Origin: Escherichia phage fDHCT2
Sequence record: OR427838.1
Direction: 5' to 3' (one strand)
DNA: 64,000 nucleotides
Below the pieces are notes generated by a model. The model ran no database searches. It saw only the letters and a program-made list of their open reading frames with translations, and had not been told where the DNA came from. The position numbers and the translations under genes were made by a program. Positions 18,668 to 31,256 of this stretch are shown piece by piece; positions within the stretch are counted from its first letter, which is position 1, and each line of letters begins with the position of its first letter.

Positions 18668-19627
18668 TTATTTTTCGAAAGGACGAATTAAATGATGGTT
18701 ATCTTGGAAACGCTTGATGTAGTCGTTTTCACCTAAAGTCTTATACATATTCACTACAGCTTGGTAGTTTTCCCAGGCGTACTCGCGGAACCAACCTGAA
18801 GTGATTGAGGTACACACTTTCTCAAGAGCCATATAAAAACTTAATGATGGTGAAATATTGAAGTCATTAGGAACCTGTGAACGTTCTAGTGCCAGGACAC
18901 AAGTTTCTTCATATACACCAGCCAGTTTAATAGCTTCAGGCAAAGCCTCGAACTTCTCACGAGAGGTCATGACTTCAGAACCTTCCTTCATATAAAAGGT
19001 ATATGCAGGGCGTCCAGCCAATGCTACTGCTTCATGAATAGAGTCATGGTCCAGCGTATAAATGGTATCATTAAAGAACGATGATTTGTTTACGTCCAAT
19101 TTAGGGTGAGAATAGCTCAACGTTTCTTTTTGACGTTGCAACATAATTTCCCGGAGTTCTTCGTTCAGGGTGATACCTTTATTACGAAGGTATTTGATGT
19201 GGGACATAGTTTTCAAGAAGAACGGATTATTCTTCAGGAAACGATGAGAGGTTTTGATAGCCAGACAGATATCAGGGGTTGCCCAATAGAAACCAGTAAG
19301 ACGGTCCTTTTTAATATGATTTTCAGCATATTTCAGGAGACGATAACTTGAAGTGAAATCTTCGTCTTGAAGCTCGCCAGTAATTTCTCGTACGTTAGTC
19401 AGAGCACGGACAATATAAGCTTCAAAATAGGTTTCTTTACCATTGTACATACATTTAAAGGCCTGGACATCAGGGTTATCCACAGGAACATGAGCGCCGA
19501 ACATCCGGGCTTTAAAGTGATTCCATGAGCCTTGGTCGGCAATGAAATCCCAATCAGAATTTTCGATATGCTTACTTTCAATCAGACCAGCGTGGTGCAG
19601 TGCACGAGAACCAATAACTAGCATCAT
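18668..19627 (-). CDS. hypothetical protein (319 aa)
   Basis: Long ORF. Confidence 0.55.
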   Translation of the reverse strand: MMLVIGSRALHHAGLIESKHIENSDWDFIADQGSWNHFKARMFGAHVPVDNPDVQAFKCMYNGKETYFEAYIVRALTNVREITGELQDEDFTSSYRLLKYAENHIKKDRLTGFYWATPDICLAIKTSHRFLKNNPFFLKTMSHIKYLRNKGITLNEELREIMLQRQKETLSYSHPKLDVNKSSFFNDTIYTLDHDSIHEAVALAGRPAYTFYMKEGSEVMTSREKFEALPEAIKLAGVYEETCVLALERSQVPNDFNISPSLSFYMALEKVCTSITSGWFREYAWENYQAVVNMYKTLGENDYIKRFQDNHHLIRPFEK

Positions 19628-19829
19628 AATATTTTCCTCATTAATAAAGACGAGTTACTTCATATTTACCCAGTTCAGATTTTTTTGCTTCAATACGCGT
19701 TGCGGCTAGATTAGCAGCCTCTAGTGAAGAAAATTGGACCACTTGGGAAGTATTCTGCCTTACGCCACCTTGTGGGTGAGTAACAAAAACAATAAGAACA
19801 TTATACATAATATTTTCCTCAGAGTAAAC

Positions 19830-20069
19830 TTAAATTTCAGCAACGTAATCGTTATGCAATTCCCACATATCATCAGAATTATTCTTAATGATAGGAATTA
19901 TCTCATTAGAGATTTCTTCTGCATAAGGGTCATTGATACAGTGGGCATCTTCAAAACGAACACCGTAATCAGACTTCTTATAGGCAAAGCCATAAATCTT
20001 TTTAAACTTGGCACGACTAATTCGTACCGGCTCATCAGACTTATCAGACAATGGAGAGTAATACCACAT
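19830..20069 (-). CDS. small hypothetical protein
   Basis: 79-aa ORF with GAGGAG SD. Confidence 0.45.
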   Translation of the reverse strand: MWYYSPLSDKSDEPVRISRAKFKKIYGFAYKKSDYGVRFEDAHCINDPYAEEISNEIIPIIKNNSDDMWELHNDYVAEI

Positions 20070-20112: not shown

Positions 20113-20463
20113 TTAGAGTTGTACATCACTTCTGCAATATTCTAAAAATAATTTATCGTTGTCTACGGTATCCCAACGACGCCAAGATGGGTTCCAGACC
20201 AAAGCGTTGTCACCACAATCATTGAGCTTAAAATGGTCGTAGTACATAGCTATGCGTCTAGTCTCGTCACCGGAGAACCCTAGTATAGGCTCGCCGTGGG
20301 TATGATACATATGATGGTGCATTGAGAGGTCACATTTATAAAACATCTCACGTTTACCACGGACGAACAAGAAAGCTTGCCCATTCATATAGAATTCTTT
20401 ATCCGTTTTCAAAAGATATTTGAATACCGAATCTTTGTGCATAAGTCCTCCTACCACATCCAT
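20113..20463 (-). CDS. hypothetical His-rich protein
   Basis: 116-aa ORF. Confidence 0.45.
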   Translation of the reverse strand: MDVVGGLMHKDSVFKYLLKTDKEFYMNGQAFLFVRGKREMFYKCDLSMHHHMYHTHGEPILGFSGDETRRIAMYYDHFKLNDCGDNALVWNPSWRRWDTVDNDKLFLEYCRSDVQL

Positions 20464-20472
20464 GTGATTAAA

Positions 20473-20700
20473 TTATTTTCCTAACGAAATACGGGTAGGT
20501 TTTTTACCAAAATAGTCTTCATAAGAACCATCTAAACGACCTGCTTTAGACCGACAATATGAATCGTACTTTTTGTAATAAGTCATCTCAGTATTATAAC
20601 GCGGGTGTCTATCAGCCATAATAATACTTAATGGCCAACCTTTGGCATAATCGCGAAGACTGTTTATTTTACGAATGTATCTTTTCTTTAATTTTAGCAT
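20473..20700 (-). CDS. small basic hypothetical protein
   Basis: 75-aa ORF. Confidence 0.4.
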   Translation of the reverse strand: MLKLKKRYIRKINSLRDYAKGWPLSIIMADRHPRYNTEMTYYKKYDSYCRSKAGRLDGSYEDYFGKKPTRISLGK

Positions 20701-20918
20701 GAGCTCGGATACCAGATTTTACCATCAGAACGAGCAACGAAGGTTCTGCCGGCTTCTTCGCCGTAACAAGAGCTATTCAGCCAATCTTCAAGACGAACTT
20801 CACCATCATAATCATCAAGCTCAACACCAAAATCTTGTGCAGAAGCCATATCTTTTACTTTCTTATACAGCGCAGCCAGTTCAAGAGCAGCTTTTTCTAA
20901 TTCATTAATATCAGACAT
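20694..20918 (-). CDS. paralog-array member 5 (acidic, C-terminal ...WYPSSC)
   Basis: One of five tandem ORFs sharing a C-terminal aromatic-Ser-Ser-x-x-Cys tail. Confidence 0.55.
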   Translation of the reverse strand: MSDINELEKAALELAALYKKVKDMASAQDFGVELDDYDGEVRLEDWLNSSCYGEEAGRTFVARSDGKIWYPSSC

Positions 20919-20927
20919 TTTATTTCC

Positions 20928-21158
20928 TTAGCAAGACATAGAGGAGTTAAACCAGAAACCCTGGCCATCATTGATACCGTAATCACTGCGAATCCAGTCA
21001 TATTCTTCGTATTCTTCGCTAGAAGCCGGAATATAACGCTGGAAACGGTCTGCGGCGTGTAAATTAAAAATTTCGCCGGTTTTATCGGCCAGCTGCTCAC
21101 CTTCACAGATTAGTGCACGGATTTGGTCTTCGATTTCTTTAACAGTTTTAGAAGTCAT
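20928..21158 (-). CDS. paralog-array member 4 (C-terminal ...FWFNSSMSC)
   Basis: Tandem paralog with shared C-terminal motif. Confidence 0.55.
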   Translation of the reverse strand: MTSKTVKEIEDQIRALICEGEQLADKTGEIFNLHAADRFQRYIPASSEEYEEYDWIRSDYGINDGQGFWFNSSMSC

Positions 21159-21167
21159 TTTATTACC

Positions 21168-21365
21168 TTAGCATTCGTAAGAGGAGGACACCCAAGAGGT
21201 ACCACTAATTGTAATACAACCATTATAAAGCGTGATATGACGTTCCAGGTCACGAACACCGTCGATATAGATATCAGCTTCTTCGCGTTCTTCTTTACAA
21301 ATCTGGATAACGTTTTCAATAGCTGCGGCTGCAGTACGGATTGCACAATCTAGTTCACGAGACAT
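21168..21365 (-). CDS. paralog-array member 3 (C-terminal ...SWVSSSYEC)
   Basis: Tandem paralog with shared C-terminal motif. Confidence 0.55.
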   Translation of the reverse strand: MSRELDCAIRTAAAAIENVIQICKEEREEADIYIDGVRDLERHITLYNGCITISGTSWVSSSYEC

Positions 21366-21374
21366 AATAATTCC

Positions 21375-21656
21375 TTAACATTCAGAAGAAGAGGATACCC
21401 ATCCACCATTTTCTAGGCTGGTAGTGTAATCATGTTGGTTTACAATAGCGTACTGAGCTTCACCGTATTCTTCCCAGTGGGCCAGGTCAGCTTTCAAGGC
21501 GCCAGGAGAATAATAGTCACCGCCCATACCGCGAGCAGGGTATATATTAAAATGAGTCTCATATTTGTTGGCAATTTCCTCGGCACGACGAATAGCTTTA
21601 TGGATATCATTTACTGCAGCAGCCAGCTCTTTATTTTTACGGTAATCATTCATCAT
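21375..21656 (-). CDS. paralog-array member 2 (C-terminal ...GGWVSSSSEC)
   Basis: Tandem paralog with shared C-terminal motif. Confidence 0.55.
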   Translation of the reverse strand: MMNDYRKNKELAAAVNDIHKAIRRAEEIANKYETHFNIYPARGMGGDYYSPGALKADLAHWEEYGEAQYAIVNQHDYTTSLENGGWVSSSSEC

Positions 21657-21665
21657 AGCGTTTCC

Positions 21666-21956
21666 TTAGCACATTGCCGAAGAGGAGACCCAAGCACCAA
21701 CTGTAACGACGCCATTTTCAACTTCACCACCATTGTTTTCAATTTCATCTTTAAACCACTGGGAGCATTCATAACCAACAGGGTAGTATGTACGTCCTGA
21801 GCCATAATCACCTGTTCCGAATTGAATACCGTACTTATCGGCAATAGCTTCACATTTGGATTCGATGGTATCCACTTTATTCAGAAGAGCATAGATAGCC
21901 TTTTCTGCAGATTTCTCGTCATTGTATTCAGGGATTTCAATTTCAATTTTATTCAT
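21666..21956 (-). CDS. paralog-array member 1 (C-terminal ...GAWVSSSAMC)
   Basis: Tandem paralog with shared C-terminal motif. Confidence 0.55.
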   Translation of the reverse strand: MNKIEIEIPEYNDEKSAEKAIYALLNKVDTIESKCEAIADKYGIQFGTGDYGSGRTYYPVGYECSQWFKDEIENNGGEVENGVVTVGAWVSSSAMC

Positions 21957-22303
21957 GATTTACATTCCTTAATAAAGGTTTCAAGGTCATTACGTTTGGT
22001 TTGTTTTACATACTCATTATAATTAGCCATCTCTAAAGCATATCTCTTTTTACGTGGCTTGTTTATCCTATTGGTGTTGATAATATCCAAGACCAGAGGG
22101 ATAAAGTATCCTATTAAAGCTGGAACCCAAATCCAGGCAAGGTTCAATTCAAATAGGTTTTGTGTCGTATCATTAACGACTCCACCAGCAATTAGTCCAA
22201 CAAATCCGGCAATCGTACCAGTGACAAGTCCAGCGAATAAAGAAATAGCGATATCATAATCTGCTAATGCGTAACCAGGGTCGGTTTTACTAGGCTTATA
22301 CAT
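21953..22303 (-). CDS. membrane protein (2 TM helices, basic tail ...ETFIKECKS)
   Basis: Trimmed to ATG 22303 (MYKPSK); hydrophobic helices. Confidence 0.5.
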   Translation of the reverse strand: MYKPSKTDPGYALADYDIAISLFAGLVTGTIAGFVGLIAGGVVNDTTQNLFELNLAWIWVPALIGYFIPLVLDIINTNRINKPRKKRYALEMANYNEYVKQTKRNDLETFIKECKS

Positions 22304-22832
22304 TTTGGACCTCTTTGGCGTATTCGCGGCATTCAGCAATAAAACGATTAAGCTTACGTTGTTGTTTACGACTTTCTAATGTGTATTCGTTGGCTAAAAT
22401 AATAAGCTCATCTTTATCGTAGTTTTTGATATCCGAATAACTCGGACGGCGGTCGACCATTCCAAATACATCACCATTTTCTAAAGCTACATAGCATACT
22501 AAATGGTAATCATCGTCTGCCATATTAAGAAGCACACAATCAGCGCTCTCGTTTAAAGAATATACTGAATAACGTAGTCCGGCGAATTCCACTCGTTGAA
22601 TAGCCAGATTTACGTCAATAATTTCCAAAGCATCTTCAAAAGAAAGGTCTTCAGCTAAAGCAAAAATAAAAGGTAATTTGGTAGTATCGCCACGGCTAGA
22701 TGTTCTGCTTAAGAAATCGTTTGAATAGCCTAGGTCTTGGCGAATTCTATAAAGAACTGAATTGGTTTCATGGGAAAGACCACTATTTTTAAACCAATCA
22801 ATATTTGATATAAGGTTATCATATAAACTCAT
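22296..22832 (-). CDS. hypothetical protein (178 aa)
   Basis: ORF; C-terminal basic tail ...NRFIAECRE. Confidence 0.5.
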   Translation of the reverse strand: MSLYDNLISNIDWFKNSGLSHETNSVLYRIRQDLGYSNDFLSRTSSRGDTTKLPFIFALAEDLSFEDALEIIDVNLAIQRVEFAGLRYSVYSLNESADCVLLNMADDDYHLVCYVALENGDVFGMVDRRPSYSDIKNYDKDELIILANEYTLESRKQQRKLNRFIAECREYAKEVQNV

Positions 22833-23517: not shown

Positions 23518-23547
23518 ATTATACCCTGTCCTCTGAGGGATGTAAAC
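23518..23547 (-). promoter_or_regulatory. early promoter (-35 GTTTAC, extended -10 GGTATAAT)
   Basis: Near-consensus sigma70 elements on minus strand. Confidence 0.65.
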
Positions 23548-26952: not shown

Positions 26953-27899
<947 letters not shown>

Positions 27900-30653: not shown

Positions 30654-31256
30654 ATGCTCTTCTCATTTTTCGATCCTATCGATTACGAATCAAAAACAGT
30701 CAAGCCGGATTCGGGCTCATTAACAAATGCCGATGTACTGAGCGTGCCGATGACTGATATATTTAGAAATTATAAAGAATATTTTGATAAAGTGGCTAAA
30801 AACTATACACTAAAGACTTATTATATCAACGGGGCCCCACGCCCTGAAGAATTAGCCCATCAACTTTATGGTAATGTCCAATTATATTGGGTTTTATTGA
30901 TGTGTAATAATGTATACGACCCTTATTACGGCTGGATTACAGGCCAAGAAGTCGCATATCAAGCGGCAATCCAAAGATATTCTACTGCAGGTGGCAATCA
31001 AGTTCTTTATCATGTTAATGAAAAGGGTGAGAAATTCTGGAATCTTGTTAATACTCCAGAAAACCCATATACTTGGTATGATAAAGGTGATACAGAAAAA
31101 CGTTATCCTCAATATGAGGGCCCTTTGGCTGCAGTAGATATTTACGAGGATGCTATTCGTAAAAATGAATATAAGCGCGAAATAAAGATTGTAGACCCTA
31201 ATGATATTGAGTCCTTTATTTCTGCCCTTATTCGCGAAATGGAGAAAGCCCTCTAA
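30654..31256 (+). CDS. 53: gp53 baseplate wedge protein
   Basis: 200 aa, directly upstream of gene 5, late promoter at 30619-30626. Confidence 0.7.
   Translation: MLFSFFDPIDYESKTVKPDSGSLTNADVLSVPMTDIFRNYKEYFDKVAKNYTLKTYYINGAPRPEELAHQLYGNVQLYWVLLMCNNVYDPYYGWITGQEVAYQAAIQRYSTAGGNQVLYHVNEKGEKFWNLVNTPENPYTWYDKGDTEKRYPQYEGPLAAVDIYEDAIRKNEYKREIKIVDPNDIESFISALIREMEKAL

Follow-up and report, generated by a model that had tools for sequence, protein, structure and literature searches.

Transferases of the Pol-beta fold act on hydroxyl acceptors, and in GlnD–PII, MntA–HepT and GlnE–glutamine synthetase an enzyme of this type is matched to one specific protein that offers such an acceptor. A second kind of pairing is that of CitX or MdcG, transferases assigned to the nucleotidyltransferase superfamily, with the small acidic carriers CitD or MdcC (about 100 amino acids), in which a nucleotide-derived prosthetic group is placed on a serine; a third is that of MenA–MenT and AbiEi–AbiEii, in which a gene for a nucleotidyltransferase-like enzyme is preceded, on the same strand and often with overlap, by one or more small genes. 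Here we describe a locus of Escherichia phage fDHCT2 (sequence record OR427838.1) that can be compared with all of these. It consists of an array of five small acidic genes whose products share a C-terminal Ser-Ser…Cys tail (positions 20694–21956 of the 64,000-nucleotide stretch of DNA that was analyzed, referred to as the window) and, downstream on the same minus strand, a gene for an enzyme built from the domains DUF7277 and DUF7275 (18668–19627). The array and the enzyme form a phage-exclusive, oriented two-part gene module whose linkage is near-obligate in both directions.

The resemblance to GlnD–PII, MntA–HepT and GlnE–glutamine synthetase is one of analogy, and GlnD provides a further likeness in that its transferase is joined to a second, helical hydrolase domain. 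The acceptors in those systems are tyrosines in loops, whereas here the candidate acceptor is the C-terminal tail; their partners are single genes, whereas here they form paralog arrays; and modification in the present case is only proposed. No sequence or profile similarity of the enzyme to systems of this type was detected. CitX and MdcG differ in belonging to bacterial metabolism, in having one carrier per enzyme and in using a serine near the N-terminus; no homology to them was found, and their companion genes (CitG and the lyase subunits) are absent here. The layout of MenA–MenT and AbiEi–AbiEii is shared, but the present module is found only in genomes of lytic phages and contains several diverged paralogs with an invariant tail.

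Linkage of the small proteins to a DUF7277+DUF7275 enzyme

The enzyme gene of the window encodes 319 amino acids, with DUF7277 at residues 2–101 (1.8e-26) and DUF7275 at residues 120–305 (3.5e-77), and it matches phrog_2141. Its association with the small proteins holds when it is approached from either side. When 60 IMG/VR loci were fetched through the small protein, with an alignment narrower than the 50-member one described below, and all their open reading frames (ORFs) were clustered, 56 of about 58 small-protein loci proved to have a member of the enzyme family immediately downstream and in the same orientation, and the second commonest neighbor family occurred in only 15. Conversely, 70 of the 80 loci fetched through the enzyme contained a match to the hidden Markov model (HMM) of the small family, always upstream and on the same strand, and in five further loci the tail was borne by divergent ORFs. 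In many loci, 1–100 nucleotides (nt) separate the end of the last small-family gene from the enzyme gene. Likewise, two independent Logan contigs carry three and five to six tail-bearing genes, respectively, directly before a DUF7277+DUF7275 gene (as judged from precomputed Pfam labels), and the rV5-like phage ESCO13 has the same layout, with tail-bearing genes followed by the DUF7277+DUF7275 gene. The linkage thus survives across T4-like phages, rV5-like phages and 300–390 kb contigs of jumbo phages, in which the neighboring genes are otherwise different.

The enzyme is present in 733 phage records that span T4-like phages, Phapecoctavirus, Pseudomonas phages of the phiPsa type, and Stenotrophomonas, Vibrio, Streptomyces and Gordonia phages, and its length stays at 300–320 amino acids across the linked loci. 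Among 185,579 species genomes it was found in only five contigs of metagenome-assembled genomes, and it is essentially phage-only. At this position it is not shared by every T4-type phage: in the region 64000–74000 of phage T4 itself, e.4, e.3, e.2 and nudE are contiguous, and neither the array nor the enzyme is present at the syntenic site. Relative to T4, the array, the four small ORFs that follow it, the enzyme gene and the two genes after that constitute a cassette that is missing at this site.

In the window, four small ORFs (20473–20700, 20113–20463, 19830–20069 and 19641–19808, all on the minus strand) intervene between the array and the enzyme gene. They belong to PHROG families of their own and are lineage-specific insertions that lie outside the conserved module. 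The first of them overlaps the last gene of the array by 7 nt. For the second, of 116 amino acids, the listed start is probably too far upstream, the PHROG match beginning at residue 8.

A family of paralogs with a shared C-terminal tail

The array consists of five adjacent minus-strand ORFs in head-to-tail arrangement, with products of 96, 93, 65, 76 and 74 amino acids and with ATG starts and TAA stops throughout; both the ORFs and their translations agree with a first-pass annotation of this DNA, which had pointed out five consecutive minus-strand genes (65–96 amino acids) with related tails ending in cysteine. Paralog A (21666–21956), of the 'GDYGSGRTYYP' type, ends GAWVSSSAMC, with the tail WVSSSAMC at 21669–21692, and matches phrog_899 (9e-24). 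Paralog B (21375–21656), of the 'GMGGDYYSP' type, ends GGWVSSSSEC (tail WVSSSSEC, 21378–21401; phrog_899, 6e-20), and paralog C (21168–21365), which is of a short type without a YG-G-G-Y loop and matches the family HMM at E=5e-4, ends SWVSSSYEC (tail WVSSSYEC, 21171–21194; phrog_4882, 2e-36). Paralog D (20928–21158), of the 'YIPASS' type, ends FWFNSSMSC (tail WFNSSMSC, 20931–20954; phrog_899, 5e-15). Paralog E (20694–20918; phrog_899, 4e-10) ends IWYPSSC, with a terminal WYPSSC at 20697–20714, and is of a double-motif type, since it contains a second, internal copy of the motif, WLNSSC (W46-L-N-S-S-C51, 20766–20783), that the first-pass annotation had missed. Both phrog_899 and phrog_4882 are catalogued as 'unknown function'.

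Each of the four gene junctions (within 20919–21668) reads TG(C/T)-TAA-GG(A/T)A-N5-ATG on the minus strand. The gaps between the genes had been noticed before and given as 7–9 nt; every one of them is exactly 9 nt. This fixed spacer, together with the overlap of each stop codon with the ribosome-binding site of the next gene, points to translational coupling. Upstream of the tails the proteins are divergent and acidic, as had been claimed, with isoelectric points of 4.27–5.23 and bodies that are 15–31% identical, yet they are homologous (pairwise BLAST: A–B, 6e-6; A–D, 2e-5; B–D, 7e-5). Together with the four invariant columns described next, these matches bear out the description of the proteins as paralogs with a constrained terminal cysteine motif.

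All five proteins end in W-x-x-S-S-(0–2 residues)-C-stop, and in alignments of 5, 21 and 50 members the only invariant columns are this W, S, S and C. Among the six-frame ORFs of at least 35 amino acids across the whole window, 6 of 752 end in the pattern W..SS.{0,3}C, against 0.008 expected from composition, and five of these six are the array genes. The sixth (30911–31018, plus strand) is a basic, 35-amino-acid, stop-to-stop ORF that lies out of frame inside a 200-amino-acid ORF (30654–31256), ends CRWQSSSLSC and has no family HMM match; its tail-like end is probably due to chance, even though just 0.008 such ends are expected per window.

The tail could be examined further in 186 non-identical tails from other phages. 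Its register is fixed, with serines at +3 and +4 from the tryptophan and the cysteine at +7 in 168 tails, +5 in 10, +8 in 7 and +6 in 1. Across these tails both invariant serine positions use all six serine codons (TCN and AGY), the cysteine is encoded by TGC in 127 and TGT in 59, and TAA, TGA and TAG stops all occur; a sequence resembling a ribosome-binding site follows just 117 of the 186. Because all six serine codons, both cysteine codons and all three stops are in use, the constraint on the tail acts at the level of the protein and not of the nucleotides. A constraint on nucleotides only, which the first-pass annotation had named as grounds for abandoning its proposal, is contradicted by this variety.

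The family to which the array belongs is large and anonymous. A profile search of 1.84 billion representatives returned 217 proteins at E<=0.001, nearly all of 70–140 amino acids and almost all matching the profile up to their last residue, and paralog B alone is matched in 297 phage records (tblastn). Members share a plan in which a long N-terminal helix ending A-E-x-I-A-D-E-x-G-x-x-F-x-F, lengthened in some into coiled-coil-like segments, is followed by a Y-G-(M/S)-G-G-x-Y-(Y)-P loop, then by an acidic part of variable sequence that includes a tryptophan, and finally by the C-terminus G-x-W-x-S-S-S-x-x-C. The five array proteins and 50 diverse family members gave no Pfam match, the five array proteins gave no match in NCBIfam or in PADLOC (the latter at E up to 1), and a search of PDB sequences with the family profile returned only noise. 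Every named database match to the family is a 'hypothetical protein', and literature searches on the small-protein family and on DUF7275/DUF7277 (PF23940/PF23942) found nothing relevant; a known, characterized function, the other outcome that would have settled the matter, was thus found in neither databases nor literature.

In the AlphaFold2 model of paralog A, for which the mean predicted local distance difference test score (pLDDT) is 89.9, a helix at residues 14–42 is followed by a beta meander and a helix at 66–74, and the tail forms a strand (88–91) and then a short helical turn that is packed in the fold, with a pLDDT of about 78. The tail is thus predicted to belong to the fold and not to be a floppy degron. 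Two readings of the small proteins were tried and rejected. The first was that of ubiquitin-like or sulfur-carrier proteins (ThiS, MoaD, Ubl): the tail ends in cysteine without Gly-Gly, the model has a long helix and a beta meander with no fold match, and there is no E1-like gene nearby. The second was that of precursors of ribosomally synthesized and post-translationally modified peptides (RiPPs), whose loci of the prochlorosin type also contain tandem short paralogs with a Ser/Cys-rich C-terminal end beside one conserved enzyme. The cores of RiPP precursors are variable, whereas the tail is the most conserved part of the present proteins, and the latter are confidently predicted to be folded domains instead of leader–core peptides; no recognized maturase was found in the loci, the lanthipeptide (LanB/C/M), YcaO and radical-SAM families being absent among the neighbors in the window and in two further loci (L155 and L157).

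The tail recurs in T4-like, rV5-like and metagenomic relatives, so that the search of other T4-like genomes suggested by the first-pass annotation gave a positive result. Mosigvirus genomes of the RB69 type have A-, B- and C-type genes at the same place, and Klebsiella phage F48 (Marfavirus) has types A, B, E, D and C in a different order; paralog C in particular has orthologs in both the RB69-like phages and F48. Lazarusvirus phages of Acinetobacter have two or three members adjoining a helicase gene, and ESCO13 (Phapecoctavirus, not a T4-type phage) has a member of the YGMGG type, a double-motif E-type member and an A-type member. The E-type pairing of an internal W-x-N-S-S-C-Y-G-E-E with a terminal W-x-P-S-S-C recurs in ESCO13, in F48 and in metagenomic members, examples outside the window being found at L148 (2413–2631) and L003 (2005–2268), and the type has been kept from T4-like to rV5-like phages. 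Metagenomic viral contigs of 6–390 kb have one to five adjacent copies of the family, and the 310-kb Logan contig has five or six. The presence of orthologous paralog types in Mosigvirus, Marfavirus and Phapecoctavirus indicates that the duplication is ancient and is not a recent local expansion, and the array represents an old set of paralog types that has been maintained.

Consistent with maintenance, the ratio of nonsynonymous to synonymous substitution rates (dN/dS) between Dhakavirus and Gaprivervirus orthologs is 0.15 for paralog A, 0.23 for B, 0.10 for C and 0.07 for E, as compared with 0.11 for the enzyme; these four paralogs evolve under purifying selection. Paralog D was judged from a table of identities, as gapped matches made its dN/dS invalid: it is 50–82% identical among relatives in which the enzyme is 83–98% identical and C and E are 94–100% identical. 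It is the single hypervariable or mosaic member within a conserved array. Hence, of the tandem duplication and diversification that had been suggested for these genes, duplication stands, whereas local diversification does not, the types being ancient and only paralog D hypervariable.

The enzyme and the possible role of the tail

What the module does may be approached from the enzyme. Across 26 homologs, down to 45% identity, 71 of its columns are invariant, including G6, S7, A9, D25, D27 and E69 in the N-terminal domain. The AlphaFold2 model (pLDDT 88.6) places a strand at residues 2–5, a helix at 6–12, a strand at 26–31, a helix at 32–41 and strands at 45–47, 54–61 and 64–73, that is, in the order beta-alpha-beta-alpha-beta-beta-beta, with G6-S7 at the junction of the first strand and helix, D25-x-D27 at the start of strand 26–31 and E69 in strand 64–73. 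The catalytic signature of Pol-beta nucleotidyltransferases consists of h-G-[GS] ending strand 1, [DE]-h-[DE]-h on the second strand and a carboxylate located in one of the strands that follow, and the enzyme contains the h-G-[GS], the [DE]-h-[DE]-h pair and the third carboxylate; its G-S to D-x-D spacing, at 17 residues, is longer than the 9–13 that are classic for this type. Because the invariant G-S, D-x-D and E and the predicted order of strands and helices fit the Pol-beta pattern, we infer that the N-terminal domain is probably a Pol-beta-type nucleotidyltransferase. Some GenBank records label homologs of the enzyme 'putative nucleotidyltransferase'.

The C-terminal half is all-helical in the model and carries many residues that are polar and invariant across the same homologs; the invariants there include K125, H128, R129, H174, D193-H194-D195, H198, E240, E241, C243, E248, R249 and C272. 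This half also has a very conserved segment, K-V-C-T-S-I-T-S-G-W-F-R-E-Y-A-W-E-N. A second active site, of the HD type, is possible in this domain, with no HD model of Pfam matching it. A phmmer and profile match of the enzyme to PsaB in the PDB was set aside as spurious, being confined to the GWFREYAWEN part of the conserved segment, and PADLOC gave no match at E up to 1.

It is also worth noting which genes accompany the module elsewhere. In jumbo-phage loci (L005–L016), genes whose products look like polynucleotide kinase, RNA ligase and NinI phosphatase are found repeatedly at a distance of no more than a few kb; in Streptomyces phage Circinus an annotated polynucleotide kinase lies 2 kb upstream of a distant homolog of the enzyme, and in Gordonia phage Engineer a tRNA cluster lies 1.2 kb downstream of another. 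At locus L155, HD_4 and PrkA genes are found downstream. Such neighbors may hint at an RNA-related role of the module.

Taken as a whole, these observations are best explained if the small, acidic, folded proteins work together with the DUF7277+DUF7275 enzyme, a reading that we hold with a little less than even confidence; for a functional partnership between the two, considered by itself, the balance is about even. As to how such a partnership would operate, covalent modification of the tail by the enzyme is the single most likely mechanism, and it is put forward tentatively. It is favored by three features together: a fold that acts on hydroxyls, a tail in which tryptophan, two serines and cysteine alone are invariant, and the duplication of the motif inside one protein, which is expected of a short recognized element. 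The enzyme would recognize two elements jointly, the W-x-x-S-S…C tail and the conserved 'A-E-x-I-A-D-E-x-G-x-x-F' end of the long helix, and would attach a nucleotide-derived group to a serine hydroxyl or the cysteine thiol of the tail. The paralogs, once modified, would serve as a set of carriers or effectors whose variable acidic bodies provide different specificities. Of the three roles that the first-pass annotation had offered for the tail (modification, targeting or degradation), the near-obligate linkage to an enzyme makes a modification signal the likeliest. A further step, in which the module would be a phage-exclusive modification pathway of T4-like, rV5-like and jumbo phages that has no cellular counterpart and in which each modified paralog acts on a different host target, is more speculative, and we regard it as doubtful.

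Several observations weigh against such a partnership or against modification as its mechanism. The nucleotidyltransferase assignment is drawn solely from motifs and predicted secondary structure: the enzyme has no nucleotidyltransferase profile match in Pfam (DUF7277 and DUF7275 only), in NCBIfam or among PDB sequences, and hhalign comparison with E. coli Cca and AadA, for which approximate sequences were used, gave no match. In the window, four unrelated ORFs part the array from the enzyme; one metagenomic lineage of the enzyme (L123, L124, L127 and L138) has no tail-bearing small gene upstream, and no small partner could be recognized beside the distant, short homologs (25–33% identity) of Streptomyces, Gordonia and Vibrio phages. 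Known pairs of nucleotidyltransferase and partner do not show five paralogs per enzyme, and linkage alone cannot tell substrates from regulators or from mere co-expression. In the metagenomic lineage just mentioned, the place of the small gene is taken by an ORF of 177–178 amino acids, which could be a replacement partner; loss is also possible.

The main rival is a regulatory, antitoxin-like or specificity-subunit role, in which the small proteins would bind the enzyme non-covalently through the tail and either keep it inactive or steer it to different targets, its real substrate being host RNA, for example the 3′ ends of tRNAs; small upstream antitoxins act in this manner on nucleotidyltransferase toxins of the MenT or AbiEii type. 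Small acidic genes upstream of an enzyme gene, on the same strand and often overlapping or coupled, are laid out as an antitoxin and its toxin would be, several phages have tRNA genes or ORFs like polynucleotide kinase and RNA ligase in the vicinity (identified mostly by eye), and a tail that is predicted to be structured is in keeping with this role. However, two to six diverged paralogs per enzyme are atypical of antitoxins, an invariant Ser-Ser…Cys tail exceeds what simple binding usually needs, it is not obvious why a lytic phage would need an antitoxin, and no MenT, AbiEii or DUF1814 model and no PADLOC entry matched. On balance we consider this role rather unlikely.

Unlikely, too, is the reading in which the small proteins act on their own in host takeover or anti-defense, roles that the first-pass annotation had called typical of such arrays. 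Each acidic paralog would be a decoy for a different host protein or for a defense factor that binds nucleic acids, with the tail serving folding, oligomerization or metal binding and the enzyme being a mere syntenic neighbor. As small acidic products of variable accessory regions in genomes of the T4 type, the proteins do recall the decoys Ocr, Arn and ArdA and the diversified internal-protein sets of T4; the isoelectric points of 4.3–5.2, the location between e.2 and e.4, in an accessory region of early type on the minus strand and 5 kb from the gene for Acb1, which counters the cyclic-oligonucleotide-based antiphage signaling system (CBASS), the hypervariability of paralog D among near-identical phages and the long N-terminal helix, whose coiled-coil-like extension in some members suggests oligomers, all speak for it. 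Yet synteny alone leaves the linkage across T4-like, rV5-like and jumbo contigs unexplained, selection is purifying on every paralog but D, and the small proteins resemble neither known DNA mimics nor anti-defense folds, nor any characterized anti-defense protein, in sequence or fold. In contrast to the present family, the Ocr, Arn and ArdA and T4 internal-protein families have, to our knowledge, no invariant C-terminal cysteine motif and no dedicated enzyme partner, and no fold or sequence similarity to them was seen. A decoy or anti-defense activity is nonetheless possible at the effector end of the proposed pathway.

That the tail is a protease degron, or a signal for capsid packaging or export, is improbable. 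Its position at the extreme C-terminus is where degrons of the ClpXP or Tsp type lie, but it is predicted to be packed in the fold, E-type members have an internal copy of the motif as well, the five proteins share no N-terminal T4 capsid-targeting sequence and have neither a signal peptide nor a hydrophobic segment, and the linkage to the enzyme would be left unexplained; the degron was rejected. Essentially no weight attaches to an artefact, in which the tails would merely reflect overlapping stop-codon and ribosome-binding signals, or the ORFs would not be genes: the four uniform junctions could suggest it, but the tryptophan and serine positions lie 9–24 nt upstream of the stop codon, and it was rejected on the codon variety and incomplete ribosome-binding signal of the 186 tails, the dN/dS of 0.07–0.23, the confident model of paralog A and a family of 217 representatives, almost all of which match the profile to their very end.

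Surroundings of the locus and its meaning

The window comes from a T4-like phage of the JS98/Dhakavirus type, and the 2-kb stretch around the array is 87–93% identical to Dhakavirus and Gaprivervirus genomes. The cassette is bounded upstream by a gene for an e.4-like membrane protein (21953–22339, minus strand; phrog_2330), which overlaps the start of paralog A by 4 nt (ATGA) and whose ortholog in phage SP18 is annotated as e.4. The listed TTG start of this gene is probably too far upstream; the PHROG match begins at residue 13, and an ATG at M13 is the likelier start. Of the sigma-70-like promoter matches that precede the run of genes, the best is TTTACA-17-TATAAT at 23518–23546 (minus strand), which agrees with the consensus at 11 of 12 positions and is a consensus match only, the total count of such sites in the region being no higher than the shuffled expectation. 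The 57B position, also on the minus strand and in the same early region, is occupied by the Acb1 gene (27222–27677), which encodes an anti-CBASS phosphodiesterase (Pfam PF23474, 8e-59); some 5 kb separate it from the array.

The small proteins and the enzyme have so far been catalogued only as unknowns, in two PHROG families and two Pfam domains of unknown function, and their association suggests a two-part phage system that had not been described. More than 700 sequenced phages encode the enzyme, among them many phages of E. coli, Klebsiella, Acinetobacter and Aeromonas that are considered for therapy, and, with 45–60% identity across phage families, it is among the most conserved accessory proteins of these genomes. 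The linkage described here merges two anonymous families into one testable hypothesis, that of an enzyme with tail-marked partners. Covalent modification of the tail, if it takes place, would represent a new kind of post-translational chemistry in lytic phages, and the W-x-x-S-S…C motif would be a handle with which to find more substrates; if instead the small proteins regulate a transferase that acts on RNA, the module would amount to a new device for host shutoff or RNA repair. With either outcome, several genes per genome would become annotated in hundreds of phages.

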